Positions 17,401-42,848 of a stretch of 64,000 nt of DNA are shown here, piece after piece. The notes beneath the pieces are model-generated. The model was not told the DNA's origin. It worked only from the letters and a program-made list of their open reading frames with translations, and ran no database searches. Location of the stretch: positions 65,945 through 129,944 of the forward strand of contig JAGVLO010000014.1 in assembly GCA_020049775.1 (NCBI GenBank), read 5' to 3'. The stretch comes from Alphaproteobacteria bacterium. Its GTDB lineage: Bacteria; Pseudomonadota; Alphaproteobacteria; Rickettsiales; SXRF01. Both the position numbers and the translations under genes were made by a program. Each line of letters begins with the position of its first letter. Within the stretch, counting starts at the first letter, position 1.

Positions 17401-18113
17401 GCTGCCTCACGGTGCAGCCTTTCCAGTGAGAGGTCTAGCATGGTAATCGGTATTCCTGCCTGCTCCAGCAATGCTTTGTCAGGGTTGGACTCACGCGCGT
17501 TTTTTGCAATGGCGGTGATATAATCCGGCGCAGCAAATAACGCTCGCTGGGACGGACTCAGATGCTCCAGATCCAGCTTGCGCAAATCAGTAGCGTTCAT
17601 TTTATCATCGTCAGGATGTATATTGAACGATTCCCACGCACCCATGCCGCGTTCGGCAAAGCCTTTTGCATAAGAACTGAGCGCGCGGATTTTACTATCT
17701 TCCTGCAACGTATCAGATGTTTTTGATCGGTAATGTACCACCGACTTTCCTGCAAAATCGCCTCTCTGAATCATGGTGAAAAATTGGTCGAACCATTTTT
17801 CGGGATGCCCAAGATCCGGCATCGATAAAATACGGCTGTCATCATATAAGTCGGGGACAGCCCTTCGCAATTGTTCCTTTTGCTGTTCCAGCGTCAGCGG
17901 ATTGCGTATGGGATCAAATAGCGGGCTGTCAGCATTGTTTGCTGATCCGATAAACATTACAGGTTCAAGTCCGGCTTCCTTGATTTCACGAAGGCAATCG
18001 ACGTGAACCCTGTGCATCGGCGCGCGGCGACCTATGGAAATGCCGTAACGTATGCCGCGTGTGGCAAGATCGCCCTTTACGTTATTAGCATTACCGCGCA
18101 GACTTTCTTGCAT
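14445..18113 (-). CDS. nadE: Tri-domain fusion: NadM-type nicotinamide/nicotinate-mononucleotide adenylyltransferase-like domain + carbon-nitrogen hydrolase (glutaminase) + PP-loop NAD+ synthetase
   Basis: Residues ~20-80: YGISIGRRAPMHRVH and FIGSANN...NPLTLEQQ resemble the NadM motifs GRFQPFHxGH and GSAQ..NPFT. Residues ~285-620: KIASASCNQTGGDWPRNIKNICRAIDMAVGDGADMLCLEELGLSGY plus a later ICHGKW cysteine match a CN-hydrolase. Downstream, ISQALSGGADSS is the PP-loop of NAD synthetase. Total 1222 aa. Confidence 0.7.
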   Translation of the reverse strand: MQESLRGNANNVKGDLATRGIRYGISIGRRAPMHRVHVDCLREIKEAGLEPVMFIGSANNADSPLFDPIRNPLTLEQQKEQLRRAVPDLYDDSRILSMPDLGHPEKWFDQFFTMIQRGDFAGKSVVHYRSKTSDTLQEDSKIRALSSYAKGFAERGMGAWESFNIHPDDDKMNATDLRKLDLEHLSPSQRALFAAPDYITAIAKNARESNPDKALLEQAGIPITMLDLSLERLHREAALSTAGIINEAKKSGAVTADTLSAAAITMLKHKMKSAQPMTTEAPFQMKIASASCNQTGGDWPRNIKNICRAIDMAVGDGADMLCLEELGLSGYERGDDFYYSDNMKTREMLQLIADYAASKDPNLIISVGHPWYFADKSLPSQLERLQNPLYNIENQNFNVQSFISGGEIVAMSAKSYLFNYERGYEKRHFSQFSQRAANEYRNEYGQGRDGAFSIALPEIDLGNGVSMPKKVIPFGDPVVQVGDSSKRANLYHVICHGKWVGSRFEGQAEDNSDYERDNPLAVKSNDFAITVAINPNASPPAANKIDKHYELDTLASRHCDVFVDTDGLGSSGSTFAQFGGRLMAQKGQIVSEGVRNSFKDVAYTSQIVSVTPPVDKGHAPHVVIAHQFKDKYAAPVQDGPAQWEKGPRREFEEEMRNELLWLFDYMRKNKLQGISQALSGGADSSYNATKVGLMVQLACHERGVEGFFDAMSHLKCKPEAMRILKEKGEETAISFISDQMLTSVYMGTDNSSLDTLRAAFTLVVGGSTDKQSDVYKQIDAQLQTLIDGTQSDKQVAANVRQLLADKKDDASVYAGIGGEFHYRNVQRLVEIYAEIFSGVNPGKTEDARELEIRKEITAILQTRADDTTREELERRVEVVKATFEEVSHDVLSTAREEHQLAYENIQARLRQVLIMLFSNVENKIAIANPNLDEGRNSYATWGGDLHGGMISGNAHKNKQRQLDHMALLEDHGLEGIKPVKALHWANKNRPSAELQPKSKDGKVTQFDEDQLGRSFEQMDVISHYMLYDRPSVQNERKNNPTEVLQKCCKHKAFEGDSIEMLHDRIRLSYDKWAHAQFKVHGSPIASTYGKNIDHQSSLRTPNTSAFHKPELAQMALHCLDEMARRDGSNIEELTGGYSLRELSTRALVDDEFGMALTSKMWTPAATDGRKLKVGTLYDHMKEKGFDSLLKANPMADILQKAGDWRKRASARDPDSTKTASLQ

Positions 18114-27341: not shown

Positions 27342-30300
27342 TCAAAATCTTCCGGTATAGGTATCATTATCTCTTTCTTTCATGCGTTCGATGAAGCGCT
27401 CCAGCCCCACCGGCATCGGCTCATCCGGCGCCACCACTTTCCACGCGTCCAGAAAATGCGTGTAGGCGTCAAGGCGCTTCTGCCGCACACGTTCCTTGGT
27501 CAAGCCCTCTGCTTTCTTGCTGATGACCGGTATAAGCTCATGCAGCATAGGTGCGCGCCCATCCATAAAACCTTCAAAAATGGCAGTGAGAAGTTTCATT
27601 TCCGTATCCGGCAACATATCCAGCGCCATACGCACTTTGGAAAGCGTGTCGGTAACCTCTTCCGGATCATCACGGTCTAGGCGGCGCTCATGGTTGTAAC
27701 GTTGTAGTGAAACCGTATCAATGTTACTGCTGACGTTATCGCCTTCTTCATCATGCGCCTGTGTTGTATCGCTGATAACGGCATGGCCATCAATCGTGCC
27801 TTCTTCTTTTGCTGCATTGTACAAATGCGTGGCTCGCCATTTCGCCATATTGATGGCAAAAGTGCTATAGCGTGCGCCTGCCGGATTCCATCTCGGAAAA
27901 GTATCCAGCACGCCGCCAACAAAGACCTTGTCATCGTCAGAGCTTTCAGCACCTATCCACAGGTCTGTCATCATCAGTTCCTGGTTATTTGCATATTTTG
28001 GCAGGTCTTTGAGTTTTCCAATAGCTGCCTGTGCTATACCCCCGCTATTGGTAGCGATAACGGCTGCCAGTATCATACTTCCCTCCGGATCAGCCAATAA
28101 CAACTTCTTCTGCTGACGCGCTTCTTCTGCAGTTTCTGCAAGTTTGGGTATGCCAATCCTCTCCTTACACGCCCATGAACGCTGGAAGAGCAGCTTGTTT
28201 ACCGCATCAAAAATATTGCCACGCCATTCACCGTTCTTAATATCTTTCTTCGGTGGCGTGGCAACAACGATATGCTTGGCAACAATGCGGAAGGCATGAT
28301 CGATAATCATTGCACCCACATCGCTAGTGCCTAGCTGGCCCGTCAGGAGCGCACGCGCTGTCTTTAATGAATTTTGCGCACTGGTGGGAACTCGCTGTGC
28401 AAATTCGTCAAAGAGCTTCAGGTAAGGTTCACTGTCGCGTGTCAGCGTTTCCCATTCCTGCTTTTGTTTTACCACTTCACCAAGAATTCCACCAATTACT
28501 TCATTACGGTATTGCTTAATATGTTTACCAAAATTCTGTTTGGTATGGCCGCGTTCGGGATTAAAAATGAAATCCATAACTTCAGCTTCAGTCTTGTTAA
28601 GCTGCAGCTTTTCAGCCATTACCGAAAATATTGGAATCAAGCGTTTGTCTTTAAGTAAGGCATCGGTATCCGTTGCTACCGCCTCCGGCAACTGATGTTC
28701 CTTCACCAGATAATCCGGCGTGATATCTGCGAGTATAAACAAATGTTTTAAGCCCTCGCTGCGCTCCATTTGCTGGGTTTCAACCATTTCCATAATACGC
28801 GCTGCATCAGGAATGTAGAGTTTTTGCAATTTTTTCATTCCGGCGGAGTCTTTCGCTAAACCAAACAGCCCACCCAGTTTGTCCAACGCGGCCTTCGGGA
28901 AGGACAACGTCGGCTCATCACCCTTGCAATAGCCTGATAATTGCTGTGCTGGCAGGCCGATAGCTTCCGCCGTTTTTTCCAGCGGCATCGCTGTTTGCTG
29001 GCACATGCGCCGGAGCGCATCCTGAACGCTACAGCGGTGGCTCTCTGCATCCGCCATGATAACGTCTATGGGATCAAGCGTCTGCCCGCTTGCCATGATA
29101 GCGAAGCGACGGCGCTCATCGCCGGTAAAACCGATAAATTCAGCAAAGCGCCCGACATTTTCCATGTCTGCTACAGGCCTTGGCCTCAAAATATCCTCAA
29201 AGCGCTCTATGATTCCTTTGCTCAAGCCAAATGTGCTTTGTACATCCTCACGCCTCAGGTGACGCCGCTTGCGTATTTCAGAACTGATGCTGCCAACCCA
29301 TAATTCCCCCTTTTCTGCCAAATTCAACAGTTGGGCGGGAGAACGCGTCTGTGTAAGTACATCTACCGCCATAAGGGTAGTATCTTTGTCCCCGCCGCCT
29401 GCTTCATTTACCAACATGATGGCTTCGTCCTCCGAACACAAACGAGGCACACTCTTTCTAAGGCCATATTTCATATGACTTAATACCACTGGTGTAACAC
29501 CTATGGTTTGGGCGATATCTGCGTTGGTCTGACTTTTCATTCTGGCAGTCAATTGTTGCACCATATGTCCGGGAGGATCTTCGCTTTCGAGGGCTTCCAG
29601 CACAATATCCCCCAGAGTTTTGGAGAATGTCCGGCCTGTCATCACATCCACGACAGATTTTTTCAATGCCTCCACCTCTTCAGGTGGGGGCGGCATTTCA
29701 TCCCAAATTACATGGGCCAACGCAATATCAGCCAGCCTACGCGCCTGTACCACTTCCTGAATTTTCTTAGGATGATCTTCATCCACCCACTCGAGAAAAT
29801 TGCCTGTTTTTCTGCCAATCATTTCCAGTAACCGATTAGCACTGATACCTGTGGCTCCTATCAGATTCTTTATCAAAGTTCCGCTGTTACCCACGGTAAC
29901 ATGATTTTTAATTTCATCGGCGGTAATGCGGTTTCCATGCGCAAGTTTCCACAGCTTGAGTTCCTGATCCTGATTAATAAACGTACCGCTGATAACTTTT
30001 CGCATCAGTAGATCATGCGGTTTCTGCTCTCCATTCGCCCATGCATAAAATGAATATTTTGATATATGATTATCATCACCCTCCTTACTACCATTGTTCT
30101 CATTGATAAAATTCAGGTAGTTGGCATTAACCGCCCAGGAGTCCAGTATATGATTTATAAATATTGAGAAGGCGTTTTTATGCGCTTCAGGTTCCGCTGC
30201 CGCCTGTAGTTTTTCAAACTCTTCCTCAAGGATCAATTGAAAGCGCCCCGCAGCATCTTTGGCAGAAGAAGGTTGCTTTTCCAGATCTTTGCCTGTCAAA

Positions 30301-31082
30301 AGACTGATAATATCTCTTTGTATTGAAGATAACTGCCAAGACTTCAGTTCTCCACCTGCCTCATCCAGACATTGGGTCATGAATTTTGCAAATTTACCCG
30401 CCAGCTCGACATCACTGCTGATTTTTGGTGACTGCAGATCCGCCCAGCTGCTGATGGTATTGTAAGGAGCGCCAAGTATTTCCCCGAGCCGTTCGTATGT
30501 AAAACCTGATGCCTGTATAAGCATAAAAGCGGCAGCACCACTATGCCCCCGCCTTACCGATTGCATCACCTGAAGAAGCGTCAGGGGTTTGCCCTGAAGC
30601 ATCTTCCACATTTTTTGTTCCTGTTTGGGTGACAAGTCAAATGCATAGGACAGCATGGACATCTGTGTTCCGTCCGGCGCCGATTTATTGTCGAGCCAGC
30701 GTTTCAGTACTGAAACAGGGGGTACCGGCATACGTGTGGGCAATTCATTATCCGGTACCGGAGATGCCATATGCATCTCCTTCAAATAACGTTGTGCCGC
30801 ATATGGCAAATTTCCAGGCAGGAAATCCTTACGCGCCATTTCACGTCGCAGCCGGGTATCAATATTTCGTATTACGGTCTGGCGGAATTGTTCTGGCGTT
30901 ATGTCCCACTCTTGCTCCAGAAGCTGGTGAAGAAATGGGATAAAACGTTGATTGCTACTGAACCCTTTTTCAACCAGATCAGCAAAACTTTCGCGTTCTT
31001 CGCGACCAGCAGGATTATGGGCATGGTGCCTGCTACCATGTCCTGTGGAAACGCCAGCCGTTTTCTTTTCCTTTTGGCTCAT
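27342..31082 (-). CDS. 1246-aa protein: five tandem XRE/Cro-type HTH modules followed by a C-terminal sigma-70-family module (regions 2 and 4)
   Basis: The C-terminal ~250 aa carry FPRWNPAGARYSTFAINMAKWRATHL (compare sigma region 2 FDPxxGxxFSTYAxxWIRxxI). They also carry LPDTEMKLLTAIFEGF...LHELIPVISKKAEGLTKERVRQKRLDAYTHF (region 4 HTH ..ERVRQ..). Upstream there are at least five units of the pattern [S/T]xxxLxxxxGxxxxxxSxW/Y...P....L.K.A...G, for example GFTYERLGEILGAPYNTISSWADLQSPKISSDVELAGKFAKFM and MPLEKTAEAIGLPAQQLSGYCKGDEPTLSFPKAALDKLGGLFGL. Confidence 0.6.
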   Translation of the reverse strand: MSQKEKKTAGVSTGHGSRHHAHNPAGREERESFADLVEKGFSSNQRFIPFLHQLLEQEWDITPEQFRQTVIRNIDTRLRREMARKDFLPGNLPYAAQRYLKEMHMASPVPDNELPTRMPVPPVSVLKRWLDNKSAPDGTQMSMLSYAFDLSPKQEQKMWKMLQGKPLTLLQVMQSVRRGHSGAAAFMLIQASGFTYERLGEILGAPYNTISSWADLQSPKISSDVELAGKFAKFMTQCLDEAGGELKSWQLSSIQRDIISLLTGKDLEKQPSSAKDAAGRFQLILEEEFEKLQAAAEPEAHKNAFSIFINHILDSWAVNANYLNFINENNGSKEGDDNHISKYSFYAWANGEQKPHDLLMRKVISGTFINQDQELKLWKLAHGNRITADEIKNHVTVGNSGTLIKNLIGATGISANRLLEMIGRKTGNFLEWVDEDHPKKIQEVVQARRLADIALAHVIWDEMPPPPEEVEALKKSVVDVMTGRTFSKTLGDIVLEALESEDPPGHMVQQLTARMKSQTNADIAQTIGVTPVVLSHMKYGLRKSVPRLCSEDEAIMLVNEAGGGDKDTTLMAVDVLTQTRSPAQLLNLAEKGELWVGSISSEIRKRRHLRREDVQSTFGLSKGIIERFEDILRPRPVADMENVGRFAEFIGFTGDERRRFAIMASGQTLDPIDVIMADAESHRCSVQDALRRMCQQTAMPLEKTAEAIGLPAQQLSGYCKGDEPTLSFPKAALDKLGGLFGLAKDSAGMKKLQKLYIPDAARIMEMVETQQMERSEGLKHLFILADITPDYLVKEHQLPEAVATDTDALLKDKRLIPIFSVMAEKLQLNKTEAEVMDFIFNPERGHTKQNFGKHIKQYRNEVIGGILGEVVKQKQEWETLTRDSEPYLKLFDEFAQRVPTSAQNSLKTARALLTGQLGTSDVGAMIIDHAFRIVAKHIVVATPPKKDIKNGEWRGNIFDAVNKLLFQRSWACKERIGIPKLAETAEEARQQKKLLLADPEGSMILAAVIATNSGGIAQAAIGKLKDLPKYANNQELMMTDLWIGAESSDDDKVFVGGVLDTFPRWNPAGARYSTFAINMAKWRATHLYNAAKEEGTIDGHAVISDTTQAHDEEGDNVSSNIDTVSLQRYNHERRLDRDDPEEVTDTLSKVRMALDMLPDTEMKLLTAIFEGFMDGRAPMLHELIPVISKKAEGLTKERVRQKRLDAYTHFLDAWKVVAPDEPMPVGLERFIERMKERDNDTYTGRF

Positions 31083-31274
31083 GCTTCAACACGCCTGATA
31101 AAATATAACCATGCGACTTGTTTCAGCGGTAGCGCACCCTTACGCCTTGTTACCGCTCCCTGTTTTTCATTTTTTACGGGTGTAGGTATTGTATATAGTT
31201 AAGTTATTTTAACAAACAAATGTTGAGGAATTCTTTCCAGTTGATTTATAATGATTTTATTCGTTTCTGGAGAG

Positions 31275-31293
31275 AATTTTGGCGGCGCCAGGA
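31275..31293. repeat. Degenerate direct repeat of the tRNA-Gln 3' end (putative distal att site of the island)
   Basis: AATTTTGGC---GGCGCCAGG at 31275-31293 matches AATTTTGGCTGGGGCGCCAGG at 45784-45804 (tRNA 3' end plus 6 flanking nt). That is two exact 9-mers separated by a 3-nt deletion. It lies in the intergenic region between the sigma-like gene and the phosphoesterase-STAND gene. Confidence 0.6.
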
Positions 31294-31351
31294 TTCACAA
31301 TAAACAACTAAGCAGCTATTTTATAATGGCCAAATTAAAAGTGAACCTTAA

Positions 31352-31373
31352 CTTCACCCGCAATTTCACCCAC
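31352..31373. promoter_or_regulatory. Two copies of the TTCACCC(A/G)C motif near the left island end (putative integrase arm-type sites)
   Basis: cTTCACCCGC at 31352-31361 and tTTCACCCAC at 31364-31373. The motif and orientation are the same as in the cluster next to the integrase gene. Confidence 0.45.
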
Positions 31374-31470
31374 AAATTGTGTCGCTTGCCAGGAAGGAAC
31401 TCGTGGTTAACAATTACCTACCAGGAAAATTAGAATTCTTGGGTTGGTTCAAGCAAGTTAGAATCCCAGA

Positions 31471-34400
31471 TTATGCCACCTCTTCTGTATTTTTATTTGC
31501 TTGTTGCCGTTTGGGCGCTTGCGATAGAAGCTTAGTTTGCTGTTCGACAGTAATCCCTAGTTTTTGGCAGATTTGCTGTTTAAGGGCATAGTCCGTAGTG
31601 AAAAGATAAAAGTGCTGCCATACAATTCTACGTACGACTGCTAAAGCAAAATTGTTTTTCGCAAACTCTTTGATCAATGCTTCAATTTTTACTTTGGGAA
31701 AGTCTTTATAGTGATCAAGTTTTACCGCCATATCAATCACTTGAACGGTGGCATTATCATTGCCTTTTGCAACCTCATTAAGCGTTTGCTCAGCCTTTTC
31801 TGTTCCTACAGAATCGGAGACATGTTTAATCACACCGCATGTTACAGCTTGTAGTATATTGTAAATAAATCTGTTTATTGAGGTCTGAATTTTAGCTTCA
31901 TCAACTTTCTTACCTCGTGACTTTATGTATTCACTAAGGCCTTCGACCCATTGCGGCATCGATTTTTCGGCATTATCAAAAATATCTCCTAAGACACGCA
32001 ATCCCAGACCATAGCATTCCTCAACTAGCTGACGTTTGGGATCGCCACGCAATGAACCAGTAAAGTTTCTTAGAACCTGCCCCAAAATCTGAATAGTCTT
32101 AAATGCCGCATTATGTGCGAGCTGTGGAGTTAACTCGTCCGCACACTCTGATGCCGCGCACATGTGAGCAATACTACCTGTGTGTCTACCATTCTGCTCA
32201 TCACGAGACTCAAGTGCTTTATTTTGGTTTTCACGAGGATCGCGTGCAGCCAACATAATTTTAGGGAGATCGACATTCAGCTTATTGAAAAATTCAGAAT
32301 TTTTGGAAACATCGAATCTTGCTGTTTCAGTAAACAGATTTCTTGCTGCTGCTAACATCGCATTGAGCACTCGATCATCCTTTGAAAGGTGACAGAGAAA
32401 AATCATGATATTTGCCGATTCTTCATGATAAAGACGTCGGCTCAAATCATCAATGCGAGATTGAATTGTATCTTCATTGATATGATCTCGGAAATATCGA
32501 CCAACGAAGAAATAATACAGATACTTATAGCGGAACTTATATTCGCCATGCCTATTGTCCATTACTTCTGCTTCTACCAGTTCACCTAATAGGTCATCGA
32601 AGTCGAATGTTAGGCGGTATTCTGCCGTATATTTTTTATGCCAATCGCGCATCTCCTCTAAAGTTAATGAATGACGTTGATTGTTATACAAATAGTACGA
32701 AAATTCCGTAAGATAGTTATATTTAGCGTCAATATCAATTTTGGGATTTCTTTTGCGAGCAAGACTAGCAGTAACTAGAACTTCATATAAATACCCAAAT
32801 GAGCCTGATTGAGTGGTCAGCTTCGATGCAATCTCAAGTTGCTGCAATAATATAAGGACATAAGTCGGAAAAGAAGGAATAAAGTCGATACTGATAACTG
32901 TAGAAATCTGATCCTCTGCTCGCTTAATGGCACGCTGAGTTTCAATCTCGTTATCAGTATAGTTTTTTCCTAAACGACACCATTTTTCAACAAGCCTATG
33001 CCGTAAGACATAGCCAAATTGGAGAATCGAACATTGCTTAAAGTCCAATAAATGGGATTTTTCCTCGTCTCCTGCCATTGACAGTTCTTCCAGACGCAGC
33101 TCCTCTCCACCCAAGAAGACAACATGACCGAATAAATCTTTAAGCACACCAGCGATTACGCTACGTCCGCTTCGGTTAAATGGTGTTTTATGAAAATCAT
33201 CTACAATTACAACTCTACGATCTTTATCAAGCTGCCAATATTTATCCACACGACCTGATCCGTACTGCGTCTCTACTTGTTCAGTTGCACGTTTGCGTAT
33301 TTTATCAATATCTGGTTGCTTATGAAATTGCTCTCCATTGAGCAGAACTGGCACTTTACCATTACGCTGAAGATCTTTTACAAGCGTTTTAGCCAATGAA
33401 GTCTTGCCTGCTTTTTCCTCGCCAAGAAACAGTACATAAGTATTATTCAGAATATGCGTTAAAAGATTGCTTCCGCGAACTAGTACACCTTCTGAGCCTT
33501 CCTGAGTGAGGCTTATTTCACGTACGTCAGGATAGATAAAAATATCATTGAGAGTTACGGGGTCTTTGTGAGGATGGGTGTAACCAGCACCAGCATCTTC
33601 AAGTACATTATAAAAGCTATCGGTAAAATCAAACTGCTTGCGTACTAATCGCTTATTCCGCTCGAAAGGACGCCAGAGCGCCTCTCCTTCAGGTGCATAC
33701 CCATCTCCTACCAGCTCAAAACGATGGGTTTGCTGCTCACCTTTGGCTGTATCAAAAATAACAACATTAAAGGTGCTATTATCAGCAGAATGACTATCTT
33801 GTAGTACACCACCTTCAAGATATTCGTTTTGTTCTCCTTGATCGGTACATTTCTGATAAGCTCCTGGCACATGTTCATGTCCAGTTAATATGAGATCGGT
33901 ATTATCTTCTAATATCTGCCTAAGCTGACGAGCATTTTCGGCAGAATACCAATTAAAGGGATGGTGAAGGACAGCAACAGCAAGGTCAGCCTGTCCAGCG
34001 TTTGTGATTTTATCTTTTAGTATATCTACTGGATAATAGAGATTGCCTTGCTTTTCTTCTTTTTGAGATCCCCATGCAGAATTTACAAGGTGAAACACTA
34101 CTCTTTTGCTAGCAACCGGAAGTTCCACACGGCGATATAGTTTATCGTAACTCGTTGTAAGGGCATTATTTGTAGGAATATGTTTGTTTGCAAACTCAAA
34201 ATAATGATTTTGAGCGTCAGTGCATGCATTAAAAACTGCCTCATCCAATTGCCCCGGCTTTACACTGTCGATTAAAATATTCCTAACTGAGGTGTTTTGT
34301 CCAAAGTGGCAATCATGGTTGCCCGGAATGGTTAAAACTGAAAAATTGGTAGGATTAAAAGTATCCTTAAGGACAGATTTAATATCTTGGATAAGCTCTT

Positions 34401-34590
34401 CAGCAAAAGCATATTCGCCAGGACTGCCAGAGAACGCTATATCACCTGAAATGACAAGCACTCCATGAGAAACTCCCATACAAACAGAGGCTACTGCACG
34501 TCCTATAGCAGCACCGTGCTGAAGGATTGGGTTAGCTTCGCGTGCTGCTTTAAGGTGTATATCGCTTAATTGGACGAGAGCAATTTGCAT
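31471..34590 (-). CDS. Calcineurin-like metallophosphoesterase domain fused to a STAND/NACHT-like P-loop NTPase and a ~570-aa helical C-terminal region (1039 aa)
   Basis: All five phosphoesterase motifs are present: D10-I-H12, G49-D50, G90-N-H-D93, H209-H210 and G237-H-E-H240. Walker A is G390-EEKAGKTS (nt 33397-33423) and Walker B is RRVVIVDDF (458-466). After the NTPase comes a FRYKYLYYFFVGRYF-type helical segment. The gene is AT-rich. Confidence 0.65.
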   Translation of the reverse strand: MQIALVQLSDIHLKAAREANPILQHGAAIGRAVASVCMGVSHGVLVISGDIAFSGSPGEYAFAEELIQDIKSVLKDTFNPTNFSVLTIPGNHDCHFGQNTSVRNILIDSVKPGQLDEAVFNACTDAQNHYFEFANKHIPTNNALTTSYDKLYRRVELPVASKRVVFHLVNSAWGSQKEEKQGNLYYPVDILKDKITNAGQADLAVAVLHHPFNWYSAENARQLRQILEDNTDLILTGHEHVPGAYQKCTDQGEQNEYLEGGVLQDSHSADNSTFNVVIFDTAKGEQQTHRFELVGDGYAPEGEALWRPFERNKRLVRKQFDFTDSFYNVLEDAGAGYTHPHKDPVTLNDIFIYPDVREISLTQEGSEGVLVRGSNLLTHILNNTYVLFLGEEKAGKTSLAKTLVKDLQRNGKVPVLLNGEQFHKQPDIDKIRKRATEQVETQYGSGRVDKYWQLDKDRRVVIVDDFHKTPFNRSGRSVIAGVLKDLFGHVVFLGGEELRLEELSMAGDEEKSHLLDFKQCSILQFGYVLRHRLVEKWCRLGKNYTDNEIETQRAIKRAEDQISTVISIDFIPSFPTYVLILLQQLEIASKLTTQSGSFGYLYEVLVTASLARKRNPKIDIDAKYNYLTEFSYYLYNNQRHSLTLEEMRDWHKKYTAEYRLTFDFDDLLGELVEAEVMDNRHGEYKFRYKYLYYFFVGRYFRDHINEDTIQSRIDDLSRRLYHEESANIMIFLCHLSKDDRVLNAMLAAARNLFTETARFDVSKNSEFFNKLNVDLPKIMLAARDPRENQNKALESRDEQNGRHTGSIAHMCAASECADELTPQLAHNAAFKTIQILGQVLRNFTGSLRGDPKRQLVEECYGLGLRVLGDIFDNAEKSMPQWVEGLSEYIKSRGKKVDEAKIQTSINRFIYNILQAVTCGVIKHVSDSVGTEKAEQTLNEVAKGNDNATVQVIDMAVKLDHYKDFPKVKIEALIKEFAKNNFALAVVRRIVWQHFYLFTTDYALKQQICQKLGITVEQQTKLLSQAPKRQQANKNTEEVA

Positions 34591-34786
34591 AAAGAGTCCT
34601 TATTTGTTACCAATTCCTTAATAGCTAGTTTAATACCTTAAAGTAGATTTTCATAAGAGTTTTTGTGAACTTTACCATCTTAATATATTACCTAATTTTT
34701 ACCATTTCACTTTGTTACAGTATGGTTCTGGGTGTCACCTATCAAATAGGGAATACCCTGAAAAGCGCCCCCTACAGCAAACAATT

Positions 34787-36424
34787 CTAGCTCTTTGAAG
34801 CCTTGCTGACTGGTAACAACGGTAACTCAAGCTCCTTCAAGAACTCATTGTGCTTATTGAAAGCCACGCCGATTTTTTGTTCTAGGCCTTGTAGCGTTTC
34901 ATGCACTACTTCCAGCTTAATTTCCTCTTCTGCTTCTGCTGTGCTGATATAGCGTGAGATGTTTAGATTATAGCCGTGTTTTTCGCATATTTCCTCCAGA
35001 GAAACCTTCTTTGAATAACGATCCTCCTCCGTTCGGAATTGATAGGTTTTTACAATCTTTTCGATATGTTCTGGCAGTAGCTGATTTTGCCGTTTGCCTT
35101 TAGCAAAATTGTCTTCACCGCTGGCATTGATGAACAGCACATCATCTGGCTTTTTGCATTTCTTCAGCACAAGAATGCACACGGGAATGCCGGTGGAGTA
35201 GAAGAGATTGGCTGGCAGGCCGATCACGGTATCGATATGACCGTCATCCAGCAGTTTTTGGCGGATACGCTCTTCCGCTCCACCACGGAACAGCACGCCG
35301 TGCGGCAGGATGATAGCCATCGTGCCTTCATGCTTCAGGTAATGAAAGCCATGCAGCAGGAAGGCAAAATCTGCCGCCGATTTAGGCGCTAGGCCATGGC
35401 TCTTAAAGCGAGAATCATCCGCCATTGCCTCAGTGGTTTCCCAGCGATAGCTAAACGGAGGATTGGCTACAATCGCATCAAAAGCTGGCTTCTTCGCTGG
35501 GTTCTGTTCGCGGAGTATGTCCCAGTCATTTTCTAACGTATCACCGTGAAAAATCTCGAATTCAGTATCCTTTACTCCATGCAGCAGCATGTTCATGCGT
35601 GCGAGGTTGTAGGTGGTGATATTTTTTTCCTGCCCATAGATTTTGCCAACAGTACCGCCTTCTTTTTTTATCTGATTACGCACATTGAGCAGCAACGATC
35701 CCGAACCACAGGCAAAATCTAAAACGCTATCCAGATGTTTTTTCTTGCCGAGCTTGGGGTCTTGGCTATCCAGCGTCACGATGGCGGAAAGAATGGTGGA
35801 GATTTGCTGTGGGGTGTAGAACTCGCCAGCCTTTTTGCCCGAACCTGCCGCAAACTGGCCAATCAGATATTCATAGGCATCGCCCAACGCGTCTTGATCC
35901 GTTGAGAATCTGGATAGCCCTTCTGCAATTTTGGTGATAACCGTGCAGAGCTTCGTATTGCGATCCTTGTAGGTCTTTCCCAGTTTATCAGATGCTAGGT
36001 TAATCTCCGAGAACAGCCCCTGAAAAGTGCTGTCGAACGATTCATTTTCAATGAACTTGAAACCCTCCTGAAGGGTATGCAGCAACTCGTCATCCTGCCT
36101 GCGTGCCATTTCTGCGATGTTGCCCCAGAGGTGATCGGGCTTAATGACATAATGCACCCGACGGCGCAGGAGGTCTTCAAACGCCTTTACGTCGTCAGGG
36201 TTTTCTTCATACCAGCGTTGCAGCGGGGTGGTATGACCATTAGGTGCAGGATATTCTTTTCCCAACTCTTTTTTTGCAGCTGCTTCGTAATTGTCCGAAA
36301 GATAGCGCAGGAAAAGGAATGAAAGCATATAATCGCGGAAATCATCCGCGTTCATTGCGCCGCGCAGCTGATCCGCGATTGCCCAGAGGATTTTCCCCAA
36401 TTCCTTTTGTTGTTCTTCGGTCAT
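34787..36424 (-). CDS. hsdM: Type I restriction-modification system, DNA methyltransferase subunit M
   Basis: N-terminal HsdM domain LWAIADQLRG...DFRDYMLSFLFLRYLS, AdoMet motif DFACGSGSLLL, and catalytic IVANPPFS. Its ATG overlaps the stop of the upstream gene (ATGA). Confidence 0.93.
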   Translation of the reverse strand: MTEEQQKELGKILWAIADQLRGAMNADDFRDYMLSFLFLRYLSDNYEAAAKKELGKEYPAPNGHTTPLQRWYEENPDDVKAFEDLLRRRVHYVIKPDHLWGNIAEMARRQDDELLHTLQEGFKFIENESFDSTFQGLFSEINLASDKLGKTYKDRNTKLCTVITKIAEGLSRFSTDQDALGDAYEYLIGQFAAGSGKKAGEFYTPQQISTILSAIVTLDSQDPKLGKKKHLDSVLDFACGSGSLLLNVRNQIKKEGGTVGKIYGQEKNITTYNLARMNMLLHGVKDTEFEIFHGDTLENDWDILREQNPAKKPAFDAIVANPPFSYRWETTEAMADDSRFKSHGLAPKSAADFAFLLHGFHYLKHEGTMAIILPHGVLFRGGAEERIRQKLLDDGHIDTVIGLPANLFYSTGIPVCILVLKKCKKPDDVLFINASGEDNFAKGKRQNQLLPEHIEKIVKTYQFRTEEDRYSKKVSLEEICEKHGYNLNISRYISTAEAEEEIKLEVVHETLQGLEQKIGVAFNKHNEFLKELELPLLPVSKASKS

Positions 36425-37518
36425 GCCGCCACCTCCGCGTGTAATTTGAAATTGTATTTTGCTTTGAGCTTATCAAACACCTCTTTGAAAAGTTCCGTGT
36501 TATCAGGATTCATTACTTCCGTCTGATAATGATAAACCTTTTGGTGAGAGAGAGTATTGATGATCCGAGTCACTTGTTCAGTGTCTTCGATCCCTATCTG
36601 GTTAAGCACATACCCAAATTGTCCAACACCTAAGAACGAAGCGATATTCTCAAGAATCTGGCGCAACAGTGCAAAATGGAACGTGTAGAGCTGTTCGGCC
36701 TGCGCTTTTTCCAGTGTTTGCAGTAAGTGCAAATGATATAGGAAAACATCGTTCTTTGGACTTTCAAGCGTCAAATCACCCGACTTCTGGCTCAGGATAA
36801 AGAGCTTGGTTAGCTTCCTGTATCTTTCACTTTTGTCGCCTTTGGTCAGCCAATCCGCAAGGATTGAGAAAAAGCCAATGTGATGGGTGGTGATGATAAA
36901 TTTTCTGTTTTTGTAGTGCGTTTCAATCAAATCATAAAGGGTTGAGGCAGTGATGAAGATATTGTGATCATCTAAGCTAGAAACAGGATCATCAATAAAG
37001 AAGTGGCTGGATTGCTGATCTGTCCAGCCCTCAACCTCGAACAAAGCCAAAAAGAAGCACCAAACGAAAATGCGTTCTTCACCTCTGGAGATTTTTATTC
37101 TTTTTCTGTCGGGGTCATCTGGCAAAAAGAAGAATATCGACTCAATCCCATCCACTAAATTGGCATGAAGCACAAATTCAAAATCATACTGTGGCTTGAA
37201 TGGCTTTAGCTTCTCACGGACTTTATCTTCATCTATAAAGCTATGATATTGATTTAAGCTACTCCCATTCACAATCAGCTGGGTTTCTGGTTCATTCTCC
37301 CACACAAAAAGGTCTTCGCTGTAAGCATTATAATAAACGCCCGTGTGTTGCTCTTCCTGCTTGGTTGCATCTTTGTACGCCACTGACAGGCGAGTCTTTC
37401 CAGTGGCGTTAAACGCATAAATCAAGACGATTTTGACGTCTTCCTCTCTCGCCGCCCCTCTGTCGTGAATAGTATTTTTTAAGTCTTTTAATTGGCCTGC
37501 GATTTCTGAAAGTTCCAT
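36421..37518 (-). CDS. PrrC/Rlo-like ABC-type ATPase embedded in the hsd operon (putative anticodon nuclease)
   Basis: Motifs: Walker A AFNATGKTR; ABC-signature-like ISRGEERIF; Walker B FFIDDPVSSLDDHN; and ITTHH. The C-terminal LLRQILEN...NTLSHQ gives an R-x3-E...H arrangement like the Arg/Glu/His anticodon-nuclease triad of E. coli PrrC as I recall it. It sits between hsdS and hsdM, as prrC sits inside the EcoprrI locus. Confidence 0.55.
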   Translation of the reverse strand: MELSEIAGQLKDLKNTIHDRGAAREEDVKIVLIYAFNATGKTRLSVAYKDATKQEEQHTGVYYNAYSEDLFVWENEPETQLIVNGSSLNQYHSFIDEDKVREKLKPFKPQYDFEFVLHANLVDGIESIFFFLPDDPDRKRIKISRGEERIFVWCFFLALFEVEGWTDQQSSHFFIDDPVSSLDDHNIFITASTLYDLIETHYKNRKFIITTHHIGFFSILADWLTKGDKSERYRKLTKLFILSQKSGDLTLESPKNDVFLYHLHLLQTLEKAQAEQLYTFHFALLRQILENIASFLGVGQFGYVLNQIGIEDTEQVTRIINTLSHQKVYHYQTEVMNPDNTELFKEVFDKLKAKYNFKLHAEVAA

Positions 37519-37521
37519 TTC

Positions 37522-38730
37522 TTAGCCCTCACTTTCATTTGAGGGGACAGGGAAGAGTTGCTGCATCAGCCCTATTTTATGACCTCGCAGCGCATCGAGT
37601 TTTTGGCTTTGGGCGGCGATGAGATCGTCGATAGAGGATAATAGGTCAGCAATATATTGCTGCTCTTTTTTGCTCTTTGGATAAGGTATCGGGATGCTCT
37701 TGAGTTTTCCCAGAGTAAGCTTAGGAGGTGCTTTACCCGTCGTAAATGGAGTAATATCAAGTCTCACCAGATAATTTTCCAATAGTGTGTCGTTGATTTC
37801 TATTGGTTTTAATACGTGGGCATGGTTGTTAACCCAGTATTTGCCATCCGCTATAAATGCTGTTTTCTCATATGCTCCCCACTTTGCGCCATCTTCTCCA
37901 ACTAATACCAATCGTTCATTGAAAATATAGTCATCAATGTAGTCAACAATGCCGCTTGCGCCGTAATAGGGATATTCGCCTTTTTCTCTGTACTCGCTTG
38001 AGATCGGTTTTCTACGATTATTAAGAACATCGCAAACTTTCTCTAAAGGTTTAAAATTCCACTCTGGGGCGTCCTTAAACTCAGGAAAGCGGCGTTTGGG
38101 CAGGGTTTCACCTTCGGCGGGGAAGAGTTCCTGCATCAGCCCTTTTTTATGACGCTGAAGGGCATCCAGCTTTTGATCTTCCACCTCGATCAACTCGTCC
38201 AGCGATGTCAAGCAATTGCTTATGCGTCGTTGCTCAGGTAGAGAAGGTAATAGCGTTTTCCAAGAACGAAGGACATTCAAATACAGCCTTGTTCGAGTTC
38301 CGCCTTTCTTTTGTTCAAAAGCAAGCTGCTTAAAGTCGTCACCATAGTTCAATTTATATAAAAGGAATTCTGCGCTTAGATTTACTGTTTTGAAAACAGG
38401 ATATTCCTTACTAACAGCTATAGAAGAACCAGTCTTATTAATGTTAAATTTGAATGATCCATCATCACTCATATGGCGATAAACAAAGTAATTTTCTGGC
38501 ACCACGCCATATTCGCCCTCATTAGCTAATTCTCTGTTGTCAAAGTAATCTTTCTGAAGTTTAAGTCCTGTTCTGGTTGAGCTATAAATCGGAAGTTCAG
38601 TGCTGGCGGACACTCTTTCAGCATATTCTTCTAAGTAGGGGGCTAATGCTTTATATTCCCAGTCACCGCTAAACTCAGGAAATCGTAGCTTAGGCCGAAC
38701 AACTTTCTCGCTCTTGGTTTTATTGCTCAT
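37522..38730 (-). CDS. hsdS: Type I restriction-modification system, specificity subunit S
   Basis: Two target-recognition domains are each preceded by (L)R/KFPEF and followed by the conserved helices LPEQRRISNCLTSLDELIEVEDQKLDALQRHKKGLMQELF and KKEQQYIADLLSSIDDLIAAQSQKLDALRGHKIGLMQQLF. Confidence 0.92.
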   Translation of the reverse strand: MSNKTKSEKVVRPKLRFPEFSGDWEYKALAPYLEEYAERVSASTELPIYSSTRTGLKLQKDYFDNRELANEGEYGVVPENYFVYRHMSDDGSFKFNINKTGSSIAVSKEYPVFKTVNLSAEFLLYKLNYGDDFKQLAFEQKKGGTRTRLYLNVLRSWKTLLPSLPEQRRISNCLTSLDELIEVEDQKLDALQRHKKGLMQELFPAEGETLPKRRFPEFKDAPEWNFKPLEKVCDVLNNRRKPISSEYREKGEYPYYGASGIVDYIDDYIFNERLVLVGEDGAKWGAYEKTAFIADGKYWVNNHAHVLKPIEINDTLLENYLVRLDITPFTTGKAPPKLTLGKLKSIPIPYPKSKKEQQYIADLLSSIDDLIAAQSQKLDALRGHKIGLMQQLFPVPSNESEG

Positions 38731-41716
38731 AGGCGTTTAACCCCGATATGGTGCGCCCGTGGGAAAGTTTGTGCAGCAGTGGGGCCAAATCCTCTACCAA
38801 TGCCAGCTCTTTCTGTGTGCGGTCTTTCCAGCCCAGTTCCAGCGGTGCCAGTAATTCACTCAGTTGTTCGCCATCAAAAATCATGCGACGGAGAATACCA
38901 TCCACAAATTCTTGTAGGCTGGCAGCTTCCAGCCCGTGCTTATCTGCAATCACGGCCAGCGCCTTGGCATTTTTTCCCGCTTTGAAGTTGGCGTAACCAT
39001 CGCGGATTGCTTTCTCGCTCAGGCCTTCGCCTTCCTTTAGGGAATAGATGTACTCCTTAATGTCCTCATGCTCATCCATAAACTTAGCATCAGAGGCAAT
39101 GAGGCCAATCAACTGATCGCGGCTCATTTTCAGTTTACCCTTGGTGCCTTGGGAGTATTTGGCAATCAGTGCCATGATGTAGTCATAATCAATCACGGCG
39201 GAGGCAAAGAGCACGAACTCAAAATCCAACTGCTGCACTTCGGGCGAGGTATTCTCGCCGCCCTTATCCTGCTGGGCTTTAAGGCGCTGCGCGGTTTCGA
39301 TATACACGCCCTTGAAGCCTTGTAGCTGCTCTTTAGGGATCACCTGCTCGATGGTTTGTTTCTGCTCGTCGTTCAGGTCGGTGTATTGATCCAGCTGGGT
39401 TTTGAGGCGCTGCACATCCTTAAACAGGTTGATGAACTGGCTGCGTGCGGCGTCGCCTTTCAGGTTTGGCACATCCTCTGGCTTGTTTTCCAGCCCTTGT
39501 GATTTCATGAACTCGTCGAGGTTCTTGATGGCTCCATCAAGCTTCGCAATCACCACCGGCGCTTTATCCACCAGCCAAATTTCCTTGGCTTGTTCAGAGC
39601 TTGCGCCAGAAAACAGCGCAATCGCAGTATTCACGGCATCTTCTTGCTGCCGGAACTCAAGGATATTGCCATAGGGCTTGGTATCGTTCAGCACACGATT
39701 TGTGCGCGAGAATGCCTGAATCAGCCCGTGGAATTTGAGGTTTTTGTCCACATACAGGGTGTTCAGGTATTTGGAATCAAAGCCCGTAAGAAGCATATCC
39801 ACCACGATCACAATGTCGATCTTCTGCGCGTGTGGGAAATCTTGGTTAGGGTATTGCTGGTCTTTGATACGTTTCTGCACATCCTGATAATACAGATCAA
39901 ACTCAACAATGCTGTGGTTGGTTTTGTAGCGTTTGTTGTAATCCGCAATGATGGCTTTTAGCGCGGTTTCTTTTTCTTTGGGGTTTTTCTTGTTGTCTTC
40001 TCTTTCCTGCGGCAGGTCTTCCTGCATTTGCTTGGCGTCATTACTGCTTTCGGCGGGGGGAGAGAACACGCAGGCGATGTTCAGCGGCTGAAAGCCTTCA
40101 GTTGTTGGCTGCCTTTTATTCTGAATGTCCTTGAAAAGATTGTAATATTCAATCGCATCATTGATCGACGCGGTAGCCAGAACAGCATTAAACCTGCGCC
40201 CGTTGGTTGCGGCATCGTGTTTTTCAAGAATGGCCTCAACAACTGCTTTCTTTAACGGAGGATCTCCGGGTTTGGCTTTCTGCACGCCTTCTGGCTTGTA
40301 GTAATCGATATGGAAGCGCAGCACATTGCGATCTTCAATCGCGTGAGTAATGGTGTATTGGTGCAGCTGCTTTTGGAAGATGTCTTCTGTAGTTTTATAG
40401 GAAGCCTGCTCACCTTCAACCTGCTGATAGGTAGCGTTTTGTTCAAAGATTGGTGTTCCCGTGAAACCAAACAGCTGGGCATTGGGGAAGAATTCTTTGA
40501 TAGCTTCGTGACTGTCACCGAACTGCGAACGATGGCATTCATCAAAAATAATCGCCATACGCTTGTTGCTCAGCGGTTCAAGGCGCTCTGTATATGTTTC
40601 CTTGCCCTGCTTTTGTTTTGCTTTGTTTCGTTTGCTGTTTTCGTTCAGTGCCAGCCCCAGCTTCTGGATGGTGGTGACAATTACTTTATCGGCATAATCA
40701 TCCGATAGCAGGCGCTGCACCAGTGTTTCGGTGTTGGTGTTTTGCTCAACGCAGCCCTCTTGAAAGCGATTGAACTCTTCACGGGTTTGCCGGTCGAGGT
40801 CTTTTCGATCTACCACGAAGAGGCATTTTTCAAGGTCTGGATTGTCCTTTAGTAGTGTAGATGCCTTGAAGGATGTCAGGGTTTTGCCGCTGCCGGTAGT
40901 GTGCCAGATGTAACCATTGCCACAGCGTTGGTGGATGCACTCCACAATCGCTTTCACCGCATAGATCTGGTAAGGGCGCATCATAAGCAGTTTCTGCTCG
41001 CTGGCAACCAGAACCATATATTGGCTGATCATTTGCCCAAGCGTGCATTTGGTGAGGAACTTCTCGGCGAAATTATCAAGCTGGGTGATTTTCTTGTTGT
41101 CCTCGCTGGCGAACTGGTAAAGCGGCAGGAAGCGTTCATCCGCATCAAAGCTGAAGTGGCGGCTGTTGTTGTTGGCGAAATACCAAGTATCTGTGCGGTT
41201 GCTGACGATGAATATCTGTAGGAAACACATCAGCGTTTTGCCGTAACCATTGCCGGGATCGTTTTTGTAATCGACGATCTGCTGCATGGCGCGGCGCGGG
41301 GTGATCTGTAGGGTTTTCAATTCCACCTGCACGACCGGCACGCCGTTAATCAGCAGAATTACATCATAGCGATGGTGGCTGTTGTCTGTGTTAATCCGCA
41401 GCTGATTGATCACTTCAAAGGTGTTTTTGCACCAGTCCTTGATATTCACCAGCGTGTAATTCAGCGGTGTTCCGTCATCGCGTTCAAAGCTGTTGCGCTC
41501 TCTTAGCGTGCGTGCGGCAGCATACACATCTGGCGTGACGATGATTTCCAGTAAACGTGAGAACTCGTTATCTGTGAGCTTAACCTTGTTAAGTTCCTCG
41601 AACTTTTCGCGGAAATTTCTTTCCAGCGCGGCGCGATCACGAATATCATCGCGATAAAGGTATTTAAGATCACTCAGTTTGCTGATCAGATCTTGTTCAA
41701 TTTGTTGTTCTTTCAT
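38720..41716 (-). CDS. hsdR: Type I restriction endonuclease subunit R (helicase-nuclease)
   Basis: An N-terminal HSDR_N-like region is followed by SF2 helicase motifs HTTGSGKTLTS and IFDECHRSQ, then TGTPIF. Total 998 aa. It overlaps the hsdS start by 11 nt. Confidence 0.93.
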   Translation of the reverse strand: MKEQQIEQDLISKLSDLKYLYRDDIRDRAALERNFREKFEELNKVKLTDNEFSRLLEIIVTPDVYAAARTLRERNSFERDDGTPLNYTLVNIKDWCKNTFEVINQLRINTDNSHHRYDVILLINGVPVVQVELKTLQITPRRAMQQIVDYKNDPGNGYGKTLMCFLQIFIVSNRTDTWYFANNNSRHFSFDADERFLPLYQFASEDNKKITQLDNFAEKFLTKCTLGQMISQYMVLVASEQKLLMMRPYQIYAVKAIVECIHQRCGNGYIWHTTGSGKTLTSFKASTLLKDNPDLEKCLFVVDRKDLDRQTREEFNRFQEGCVEQNTNTETLVQRLLSDDYADKVIVTTIQKLGLALNENSKRNKAKQKQGKETYTERLEPLSNKRMAIIFDECHRSQFGDSHEAIKEFFPNAQLFGFTGTPIFEQNATYQQVEGEQASYKTTEDIFQKQLHQYTITHAIEDRNVLRFHIDYYKPEGVQKAKPGDPPLKKAVVEAILEKHDAATNGRRFNAVLATASINDAIEYYNLFKDIQNKRQPTTEGFQPLNIACVFSPPAESSNDAKQMQEDLPQEREDNKKNPKEKETALKAIIADYNKRYKTNHSIVEFDLYYQDVQKRIKDQQYPNQDFPHAQKIDIVIVVDMLLTGFDSKYLNTLYVDKNLKFHGLIQAFSRTNRVLNDTKPYGNILEFRQQEDAVNTAIALFSGASSEQAKEIWLVDKAPVVIAKLDGAIKNLDEFMKSQGLENKPEDVPNLKGDAARSQFINLFKDVQRLKTQLDQYTDLNDEQKQTIEQVIPKEQLQGFKGVYIETAQRLKAQQDKGGENTSPEVQQLDFEFVLFASAVIDYDYIMALIAKYSQGTKGKLKMSRDQLIGLIASDAKFMDEHEDIKEYIYSLKEGEGLSEKAIRDGYANFKAGKNAKALAVIADKHGLEAASLQEFVDGILRRMIFDGEQLSELLAPLELGWKDRTQKELALVEDLAPLLHKLSHGRTISGLNAYEQ

Positions 41717-41765
41717 TATTAATCCGCCTGCGCCATATCCTGCCCTATAACTGATTACCTGTTAT

Positions 41766-42848
41766 TTATAGACTATCAGCGGCAAGTTTCAGCAATTTCT
41801 TTAGTTGTGCTGTATCAGCATTTTCTTGCTTCTTCAAACCCTTAATGATTTCACATTGCCGGTACGGTTCGATCTGTCCATAACTGCCCCAAGTGGTCAG
41901 CACACTTTCATGCCCTAGATTTTGGCTCCATGCCTTAAAATCTTCGGGGGTTTTGCAGTAATCCTTTGCCACATGCCCTAGCGTATGCCGAAAAGAATGG
42001 GGGTTGAAATAAGGCAGCCCAGCCGCTTCAAATGCCTGTCGGAATATTTTGCACATCGGAGCGGCAGTACTCCAGTGTTCTTTGCTGAGTCCATCCGGCT
42101 GAAAGCCGTTGATGACATCTGGAACTATGCGGGTTTTGGGAAACAATGGGTCATCCGGGCTGAACAATTTTTCCTTCACCAGATATTCCGCCCATTCCAA
42201 TACAACCGCCTTGAAGTCATCCCCTATAGGGAAAAACCCAGTAATAATGGTTTTGCTACGCTTTGTATGTACCTCATCCGGGTACTGTGTTACCATCCAC
42301 TTGTGAGTGTCCAGATGTTTCAGGCTCATGGATATAATGGCGCTATCCCTTGCGCCAGAGACGATAGTAAATGCTATCAACGCCCGGTTACGTTTCTGAA
42401 TATCGGTATCGGCAGGCATGGCCTGTACCGTTGCCCGGATTTGTTCTAAGGAAGGAAATGGTCGTAATTTCATGCTATGCGCTATTTTTACATCTCTTGC
42501 TGTAAGGTTCAGGTAGCCAATATCGAGCGGGTCTATTTTTGATTTATAACCATCTTGCATGGCTAGCCATTTAAAAAATTCCTGAATGCTCCTGACGGTG
42601 GAAAGCATGGTTGCCTTGGTAAGTGGAGCATCGCCACGGGCAGTTTTTAGTCCCATCAGGTGCTTCTTGAACCCTACCGCCTGTTCCCTGTTGAAAGTGG
42701 AAAAATCCTTGAAGTTATTATATTCTTCAAAACGCCGGATGGCTTTGCAGATGCCGTCAATGGCACTTTCACTCTTGCCGTCCACCTCAATCCGATAGCG
42801 ATAGTATTCTTCCTTAATTCGTTCATTTCTAGCAGTGTAATTTTTCAT
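41766..42848 (-). CDS. Tyrosine recombinase (phage-integrase family), second recombinase of the island
   Basis: Catalytic-domain landmarks: IVSGARDSAI (Arg), HSFRHTLGH (H-x-x-R), and GHESVLTTWGSYG (His...Tyr). Confidence 0.85.
   Translation of the reverse strand: MKNYTARNERIKEEYYRYRIEVDGKSESAIDGICKAIRRFEEYNNFKDFSTFNREQAVGFKKHLMGLKTARGDAPLTKATMLSTVRSIQEFFKWLAMQDGYKSKIDPLDIGYLNLTARDVKIAHSMKLRPFPSLEQIRATVQAMPADTDIQKRNRALIAFTIVSGARDSAIISMSLKHLDTHKWMVTQYPDEVHTKRSKTIITGFFPIGDDFKAVVLEWAEYLVKEKLFSPDDPLFPKTRIVPDVINGFQPDGLSKEHWSTAAPMCKIFRQAFEAAGLPYFNPHSFRHTLGHVAKDYCKTPEDFKAWSQNLGHESVLTTWGSYGQIEPYRQCEIIKGLKKQENADTAQLKKLLKLAADSL

Follow-up and report, generated by a model that had tools for sequence, protein, structure and literature searches.

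Sigma factors and XRE-type repressors are among the best-studied DNA-reading devices of bacteria, and the systems known so far encode them as separate proteins. Here we describe a gene whose product appears to unite relatives of both in a single polypeptide. The gene lies in a stretch of 64,000 nucleotides from an alphaproteobacterial assembly (GCA_020049775.1, contig JAGVLO010000014.1, positions 65,945 to 129,944), hereafter the window, where it occupies positions 27342..31082 of the minus strand as a single uninterrupted open reading frame (ORF) of 1246 aa that starts with the ATG at 31082. The ORF had been picked out in a first-pass annotation of the window as a giant member of the sigma-70 family and is present as claimed. 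Its product, which we call the giant protein, consists of a basic N-terminus, an array of about 800 residues with at least five XRE modules, and, over roughly 360 C-terminal residues, a module containing a sigma-70 region 4. The combination of a sigma-derived module with an XRE array is a new one of known domain families.

Several described systems resemble parts of this arrangement. A sigma core with added regulatory polypeptide is known from ECF41 and ECF42, which carry C-terminal domains, and from BldN, SigC, and SigR, which have N-terminal extensions. A large survey of ECF sigmas finds the N-terminal extensions to be rarer and generally shorter than the canonical C-terminal ones, and it describes its examples as regulatory, none of them as a DNA-binding domain (PMC7826278). 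A sigma–XRE fusion, or a sigma factor with an array of DNA-binding domains, was found neither in the literature searched nor in that article. The general precedent for fusing a module derived from sigma2 and sigma4 to another domain is PhyR, an anti-anti-sigma that belongs to the same bacterial class and in which the module is used for something other than sigma function (PMC4598750). PhyR, however, is a small protein with a receiver domain, and its DNA contacts are gone, whereas the giant protein has no receiver according to Pfam and keeps the residues that would contact the −35 element. A third arrangement is that of SigO-RsoA (YvrI-YvrHa) of Bacillus subtilis, a two-subunit sigma in which the sigma4-bearing protein has a poorly conserved region 2 of its own and region 2 function comes from a separate small protein encoded next door. 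The giant gene, unlike sigO, has no conserved neighbor across the loci compared.

Set against the sigma-70 family at large, the giant protein has a four-helix sigma4 with an LP.xE..L...F motif and a T[KR]ER[VM]RQ recognition helix, and a colinear upstream motif, G.L..F..(4-6)..R[FY]ST[FY], that resembles regions 2.2-2.3. The order of its parts, a sigma2-like segment, a linker, and sigma4, with no region 3, is of the type of the ECF (group 4) sigmas, and in sigma4 sequence the closest are groups 1 and 3 (RpoD/SigA and FliA). It differs from the family in that its region 2 is recognized by no curated model and in that an unrelated helical bundle of about 145 residues and a helix-turn-helix (HTH) array of about 885 residues precede the sigma-like part. 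It also differs from the ECF sigmas in sequence, the family profile reaching a probability of 0.2% against E. coli RpoE. E. coli RpoD (613 aa) is about half its length. The likeness to the XRE/Cro-C1 family resides in modules 3-5, which match by sequence profile, and in modules 1-2, which are linked to it by profile-profile comparison. In that family there is one module per subunit as opposed to the 5-6 in the chain of the giant protein, which furthermore lacks the C-terminal dimerization, peptidase, or sensor domain that is typical of XRE regulators.

The C-terminal sigma-like module

The region 4 domain (residues 1143-1217; 27432..27656, minus strand) is a four-helix HTH with the recognition helix TKERVRQKR. 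An alignment of eight family sequences, covering residues 880-1246, was compared by hhalign with E. coli RpoD, RpoS, RpoH, and FliA (from NC_000913.3) and scored 63.7 (95.3%, P = 2.3e-8), with regions 2.2-2.4 and then region 4 aligned in order and region 3 skipped. The reversed control scored 16.0, column shuffles reached at most 22.1, and shuffles of 12-column blocks at most 34.2; genuine RpoE scored 34.8 against the same four-sigma profile. Region 4 alone gave 96.7% (P = 4e-10 over 66 columns), and a second profile comparison gave 94.6% (E = 7e-8). When PDB sequences were searched by HMMER with the family profile, 18 of the 19 matches were sigma factors, namely sigma4 domains of SigA/RpoD (E 0.0025-0.05) and FliA. 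Pfam Sigma70_r4, the sole Pfam model matched by more than one family member, was reached by two of the eight (best E 0.0042). An AF2 model built from the eight-sequence alignment (pLDDT 76.8; a four-sequence version, at 52.7, was too poor for use) has four helices at residues 1143-1217, the layout of a sigma4 domain (PMC4598750). By these sequence comparisons region 4 is clearly of the sigma type.

In the sigma-70 family, helices 3 and 4 of sigma4 (regions 4.1-4.2) make up the HTH that reads the −35 element. The pattern of the recognition helix here, [KR]-E-R-x-R-Q, aligns to RpoD 584-589, which we take to be the −35-contact residues of E. coli sigma70, and is kept in four of seven family sequences (the window protein and homologs P0003, P0006, and P0012); in a further homolog, P0008, the first residue of the pattern alone is missing. 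The window protein retains the equivalents of R584, E585, R586, R588, and Q589. The motif ...GLTKERVRQKRLDAYTHF, which the first-pass annotation had assigned to region 4, ends at residue 1210 (nucleotide 27453).

Upstream of region 4 lies a region-2-like segment (residues 1031-1098; 27789..27992, minus strand) with the motif GG.L..F..W.P....R[FY]ST[FY]. A sigma2 domain proper (regions 2.1-2.4) carries the core-binding helix 2.2 and the residues for −10 recognition and melting. The sequence previously pointed out as resembling region 2, FPRWNPAGARYSTFAINMAKWRATHL, was located at residues 1062-1087 (nucleotides 27822-27899). Taken alone, the segment gave a weak colinear match of 27-30 columns to RpoD regions 2.2-2.3 (hhalign P = 1.4e-3), placed upstream of sigma4 in the proper order and with credible spacing. 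The score of this match, 23.9, was reached by none of 150 column shuffles (maximum 20.5), and eight other segments of the same protein scored 8-14. Five family-invariant residues, G1057, L1059, F1062, W1065, and P1067, sit within the motif, and the helices of the AF2 model in this segment, long-short-short-long, are compatible with sigma2. Of the claim that this is a sigma-70 protein, the part that concerns region 4 stood up to family profiles (hhalign 95-97%), and the part that concerns region 2 is unproven, with weak, colinear support.

The two sigma-like parts are joined by an acidic, disordered linker of 44 residues in place of sigma region 3 (residues 1099-1142; 27657..27788, minus strand; pLDDT <50), which has 12 D/E versus 4 K/R and no invariant column. 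Neither a sigma3 domain nor a region 3.2 linker was found, hhalign passing over region 3. On the N-terminal side of the region-2-like segment is a conserved helical bundle (residues 886-1030; 27993..28427, minus strand; AF2 pLDDT ~85-95), in which 30 of 145 columns are invariant, the most of any region in the protein, and for which Foldseek found no fold match in the PDB. A tail helix with the conserved motif MPVGLERF (residues 1218-1246; 27345..27431, minus strand) completes the module.

One homolog, P0009 (414 aa; locus L007, 1489-2733), stands alone: it has every part of the C-terminal module from the bundle through the sigma2-like segment and linker to sigma4, and it has no HTH array. Its existence shows that this module of about 360 residues evolves as a unit in its own right, of a size usual for sigma factors. 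A 455-aa ORF upstream of P0009 was considered as a split-off HTH array and rejected, its sequence being unrelated. P0009 and the full-length homolog P0006 are from the same sample (SRR6202010) and have an equal GC content of 57%; the two may be paralogs in one organism.

We infer that a member of the sigma-70 family, laid out as sigma2, linker, and sigma4 in the manner of group 4 (ECF), was the ancestor of the whole C-terminal module. "Sigma-derived" is thus a description that the sequence comparisons support; "sigma factor," in the sense of a protein that binds core RNA polymerase, is putative and unproven.

The array of XRE-type modules

The giant protein begins with a basic, His-rich segment (residues 1-41; 30960..31082, minus strand) that has 11 K/R/H among its 41 residues, as had been observed in the first pass, and that carries the conserved motif NPxGxE..SFA in the family alignment. 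Beyond it, profile methods delimit five mutually related XRE-like segments, in keeping with the earlier count of "at least five" Cro/C1-type units. Modules 1 (residues 171-245; 30348..30572) and 2 (residues 390-465; 29688..29915) matched an XRE-anchored reference by hhalign at 94.4% (P = 8.5e-8) and 94.3% (P = 1.1e-7), respectively. Modules 3 (residues 500-570; 29373..29585) and 5 (residues 682-750; 28833..29039), both of the XRE/Cro-C1 type, matched each other at 95.5%. Module 5 comes near the pattern of 434 repressor, still opens its recognition helix with QQ, and has sub-threshold matches to HTH_3, HTH_31, and HTH_26. Module 4 (residues 590-668; 29079..29315), of the XRE type, has the conserved motif IGFTGDERRRF and a sub-threshold match to Pfam HTH_31 (E 0.0027). 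A profile-profile comparison linked the segments 171-266, 390-485, 500-570, 590-668, and 682-750 mutually, and on this sequence evidence we regard the assignment of five XRE-like modules as solid. A sixth, at residues 766-845 (28548..28787), is probable: it matched the XRE reference at 45.8% (P = 2e-4) with a score of 24, in a comparison in which the shuffle maximum was about 13 and negative-control segments and shuffles together all scored 16 or less. All of these modules, and the two units described next, are on the minus strand.

Comparison of family sub-alignments by hhalign further revealed an old super-repeat, in which residues 124-266 correspond to residues 343-485. Within it, the units designated S1 and S3 matched at 96.8%, and module 1 matched module 2 at 98.9%. 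S1 (residues 124-170; 30573..30713), a paralog of residues 343-391, is weakly similar to an XRE domain in its C-terminal half (P = 0.003); S3 (residues 300-389; 29916..30185), a paralog of the region before module 1, was not significant against the XRE reference. BLAST of the giant protein against itself found no internal repeats, and we therefore consider the modules to be ancient rather than recent duplicates.

Searches with standard models saw less of the array. Pfam reported three modules only, all under the gathering score: Xre-like-HTH at residues 174-214, HTH_31 at 603-660 (25.5 bits; cut-off, 27), and HTH_3 at 695-727 (21.2 bits; cut-off, 23). Scanning the segments separately brought no improvement over the scan of the whole protein. 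Module 1 had weak matches to Xre-like-HTH, Sigma70_r4_2, and HTH_23, and the sole "sigma" matches from Pfam and NCBIfam in the window protein fall on this module (residues 184-213, E 0.03-0.1); we treat the NCBIfam ECF matches there as noise. Of the profile searches that had been proposed as a check, those for HTH_3 and HTH_31 thus yielded matches, albeit sub-threshold ones, and those for Sigma70_r2 and Sigma70_r4 were silent on the C-terminus of the window protein. Against the PDB, a profile that combined modules 3 and 5 (segments S5 and S7) matched 434 repressor, a lambda-repressor-like protein, and the HigA antidote (E 8.5e-5 to 4e-3). The profile of module 4 (segment S6) matched XRE proteins (ImmR-like, SinR, and Orf20) at E 0.06-1, plus one ribosomal protein at E 8.3.

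That every HTH module falls under the Pfam thresholds raises the question of whether the modules bind DNA at all. The protein could in principle be a scaffold or a secreted effector in which HTH-like modules serve as protein-interaction repeats; one marginal PDB match was to the Legionella effector Ceg14 (E 0.098), and the relatives of the serine hydroxymethyltransferase gene (SHMT) of the window include metagenome-assembled genomes labeled Rickettsiales, so that a host-associated lifestyle is possible. We consider this explanation very unlikely in view of the significant matches of modules 3 and 5 to 434 repressor and the lambda-repressor-like protein, the QQ kept in module 5, and the conserved DNA-contact residues of sigma4. 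Moreover, the giant protein has no signal peptide or secretion motif, and its gene sits in a housekeeping neighborhood.

Candidate functions

Our tentative preference is for a sigma-like factor that may still engage RNA polymerase and whose choice of promoters would be widened by its own XRE heads. We favor it because nearly all proteins with such a sigma4 signature and an upstream 2.2-2.3-like motif are sigmas, and because several weak lines of evidence agree. On this model, the C-terminal module would act at promoters as a specificity factor associated with RNA polymerase. Reading of a −35-like hexamer and docking on the beta flap would fall to sigma4, and the clamp contact would come from the sigma2-like segment, possibly in a weakened or partner-aided form. 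The N-terminal XRE modules would meanwhile bind extra operator sites on flanking DNA. Promoter choice would in this way be set by one polypeptide with six to seven DNA-reading heads, that is, by a sigma with a built-in activator or tether. That the giant protein is a fully working sigma with its own operator-binding array, recruiting RNA polymerase through a very divergent sigma2 and a canonical sigma4 and selecting promoters via 5-6 extra XRE heads, seems to us doubtful.

A number of results weigh against the preferred model, most of them concerning region 2. Sigma70_r2 of Pfam was matched by no family member, a region-2-only profile found no sigma in the PDB, region 2.1 alone was at noise level, and the positions of regions 2.3-2.4 are not conserved within the family. 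Foldseek of the whole C-terminal model against the PDB likewise returned no sigma, only chance helical matches (best E 0.19). Against BFVD, a viral library, the best match, at an E value of only 0.13, was to the full length of a phage sigma factor (263 columns; probability, 0.95). For the window protein, neither Pfam nor NCBIfam detected Sigma70_r2 or Sigma70_r4 in the C-terminus, whole or in pieces, even at E<=10; in formal terms this failure of the standard profile searches is the outcome that the first-pass annotation had said would refute its sigma-70 claim. Region 4 is itself not uniformly preserved, in that its recognition helix is degenerate in two lineages, P0007 and P0009 (SREALRLKK in the latter). 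Finally, no domain of true sigma factors is better conserved than sigma2, which bears the main core-binding helix (PMC4598750). Here the order of conservation is reversed, with a canonical sigma4 and a sigma2 that is nearly unrecognizable, which fits a loss or change of core binding.

Much of this could be accommodated if the giant protein were not a sigma factor but a multi-HTH regulator or architectural protein that has co-opted sigma4 as a further DNA-reading head. The targets of such a protein would be long composite operators; it might sit on −35 hexamers and block promoters, and it would not replace the sigma on core RNA polymerase; its former sigma2 would have been remodeled, for example for oligomerization or for binding of a ligand or partner. 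It would account for a sigma2 that is missed by Pfam, by the PDB profile search, and by Foldseek against the PDB while sigma4 is canonical, and for an order of conservation opposite to that of usual sigma factors (PMC4598750). In addition, six to seven HTH domains make DNA binding enough as a function, JGI labels the homologs "transcriptional regulator with XRE-family HTH domain," and no anti-sigma-like or NepR-like neighbor gene is conserved across the loci compared. Less easily explained in these terms are the weak colinear match to regions 2.2-2.3, which exceeds the empirical null, and the location of the five invariant residues exactly in the 2.2-2.3 motif. The same is true of the full-length sigma as best fold match in BFVD and of the sigma-like size and layout of the standalone P0009. 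We regard co-option as the main rival, only a little less probable than the preferred model.

A sigma-like domain can also function without touching DNA. The PhyR precedent (PMC4598750; PMC4551977) and the divergence of sigma2 might suggest a decoy, in which the C-terminal module binds an anti-sigma factor or competes for the beta flap and the HTH array localizes or regulates it. This we consider improbable: the Pfam scan disclosed no receiver or other signaling domain, the lack of a conserved NepR-like or anti-sigma gene nearby counts against it as well, and the −35-contact residues of sigma4, for which a pure protein-binding decoy would have no need, are conserved. The sigma-like factor with its own XRE heads remains the reading that we favor, with the reservation expressed above.

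Family, chromosomal setting, and implications

The giant ORF is a genuine gene under selection. Seven full-length homologs (1191-1254 aa, 34-63% identity), from independent assemblies, share its architecture and are colinear with it over the entire length; two stop early inside sigma4. Invariant residues are distributed over all modules, and conservation is even across the protein and relaxed in the linkers. Public gene models differ in their start codons, NCBI beginning its version (P0001, 1142 aa) at M105 and JGI (P0005, 1246 aa) at M1. The NCBI model leaves out the first 104 residues, which are conserved and contain the basic His-rich segment, and because residues 1-104 are kept in every homolog, we take the long form to be the true one. 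This disagreement and the splitting of one homolog, P0002, by a frameshift inside sigma4 are grounds for suspecting an annotation or assembly artefact or a pseudogene, be it a chance long ORF or a chimeric fusion, and we consider that explanation ruled out by the seven colinear homologs and their even conservation with linker-specific relaxation. P0002, the closest homolog at NCBI, stops at …ISKSQRA, and the remainder is found in a 48-aa ORF, P0010 (VRQKRLDAYTHF…); the split reflects either an assembly error or recent pseudogenization. The region upstream of the giant gene, inspected and scanned for promoter-like sites, held one generic promoter-like site only.

The family is very rare, and the survey of its architecture that had been called for placed it in uncultured Alphaproteobacteria only. 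A word-index search of 5.8 billion proteins returned only four close relatives. When the C-terminal profile was run exhaustively with HMMER against 1.84 billion cluster representatives, eight proteins were returned: P0004 (full-length, 56% identity), P0006-P0008 (full-length, 1228-1254 aa, 34-38% identity), P0009, and three fragments. This search reached no sigma factor. Scanning with the family alignment identified no member in genome contigs and, in metagenomes, nothing beyond P0007's own contig. Phage and plasmid collections contained no relatives, and a mobile-element origin was rejected on that basis.

The chromosomal neighborhood is kept. Iso_dh and SBP_bac_3 lie on one side of the giant gene in the window, on the P0002 contig, and at locus L001, and on the other side is a block, CutA1-MurJ-DnaJ-MipZ-TauE-RpiB-SHMT-NrdR, that also adjoins P0008 at 34% identity. 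From this conservation it follows that the giant gene belongs to the core genes of a small clade and has passed down vertically, and we conclude that it is chromosomal and vertically inherited in an uncultured alphaproteobacterium. The SHMT of the window is 86% identical to that of an unclassified Alphaproteobacteria metagenome-assembled genome and 77-79% identical to those of genomes labeled Rickettsiales, Alphaproteobacteria, or Pseudomonadota. No operon partner of the giant gene is conserved across the loci compared.

Other features of these loci can be noted briefly. Directly 3′ of the giant gene in the window is a 470-aa ORF (25901-27313, minus strand) with a signal-peptide-like N-terminus, which the earlier annotation had correctly described as a secreted ORFan and for which there was no match in Pfam, PADLOC, or PHROG. 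The loci of P0002 and P0003, although syntenic, lack it and have Iso_dh immediately after the giant gene, and it therefore looks like a lineage-specific insertion. On the 5′ side, and just short of the giant gene as had been proposed, a genomic island (31471-45864) extends to a tRNA-Gln gene (45790-45864, minus strand). The island contains an integrase (44407-45663), a second integrase-like gene (41766-42848), the type I restriction-modification genes hsdR, hsdS, and hsdM, into which a gene for an AAA_13 ATPase is inserted (34787-41716), and a PDC-S60 protein of 1039 aa with metallophosphoesterase and nSTAND NTPase domains (31471-34590). No direct repeat of at least 12 nucleotides derived from tRNA-Gln was found at its gene-proximal end (31050-31520). 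A role in defense was considered for the giant gene and rejected, since the gene is outside the adjacent defense island and PADLOC and PHROGs were uninformative, yielding generic "transcriptional regulator" matches only. Elsewhere in the window, a 1222-aa ORF (14445-18113, minus strand) has a syntenic counterpart of 1221 aa on the P0002 contig, with CN_hydrolase and NAD_synthase domains, an unusual length for a glutamine-dependent NAD synthetase. At its own locus (L008), P0006 is flanked by huge ORFs of 1709 and 1182 aa (2693-7822 and 11726-15274), neither with a Pfam family, the downstream one overlapping the stop codon of the P0006 gene by four nucleotides. Neither flanking ORF is similar to anything in the window, the 470-aa ORF included.

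What, then, does the giant protein mean for our view of the two families that it joins? Because members of the family are extremely scarce and come only from uncultured Alphaproteobacteria, its general impact is limited unless its mechanism proves to be new. If the sigma-like reading is true, it would represent a new way of specifying promoters, by a sigma with its own tethers, and if the protein is a working sigma with an operator-binding array, then it would merge the roles of activator and sigma in a manner undescribed for any member of the sigma-70 family. If it is not a sigma factor, it would be a new case of a recycled sigma domain, as in PhyR. Either outcome would offer synthetic biology a compact natural scaffold of multi-site DNA recognition, and either would bear on the extent to which sigma2 is free to diverge beside a sigma4 that keeps its canonical form.

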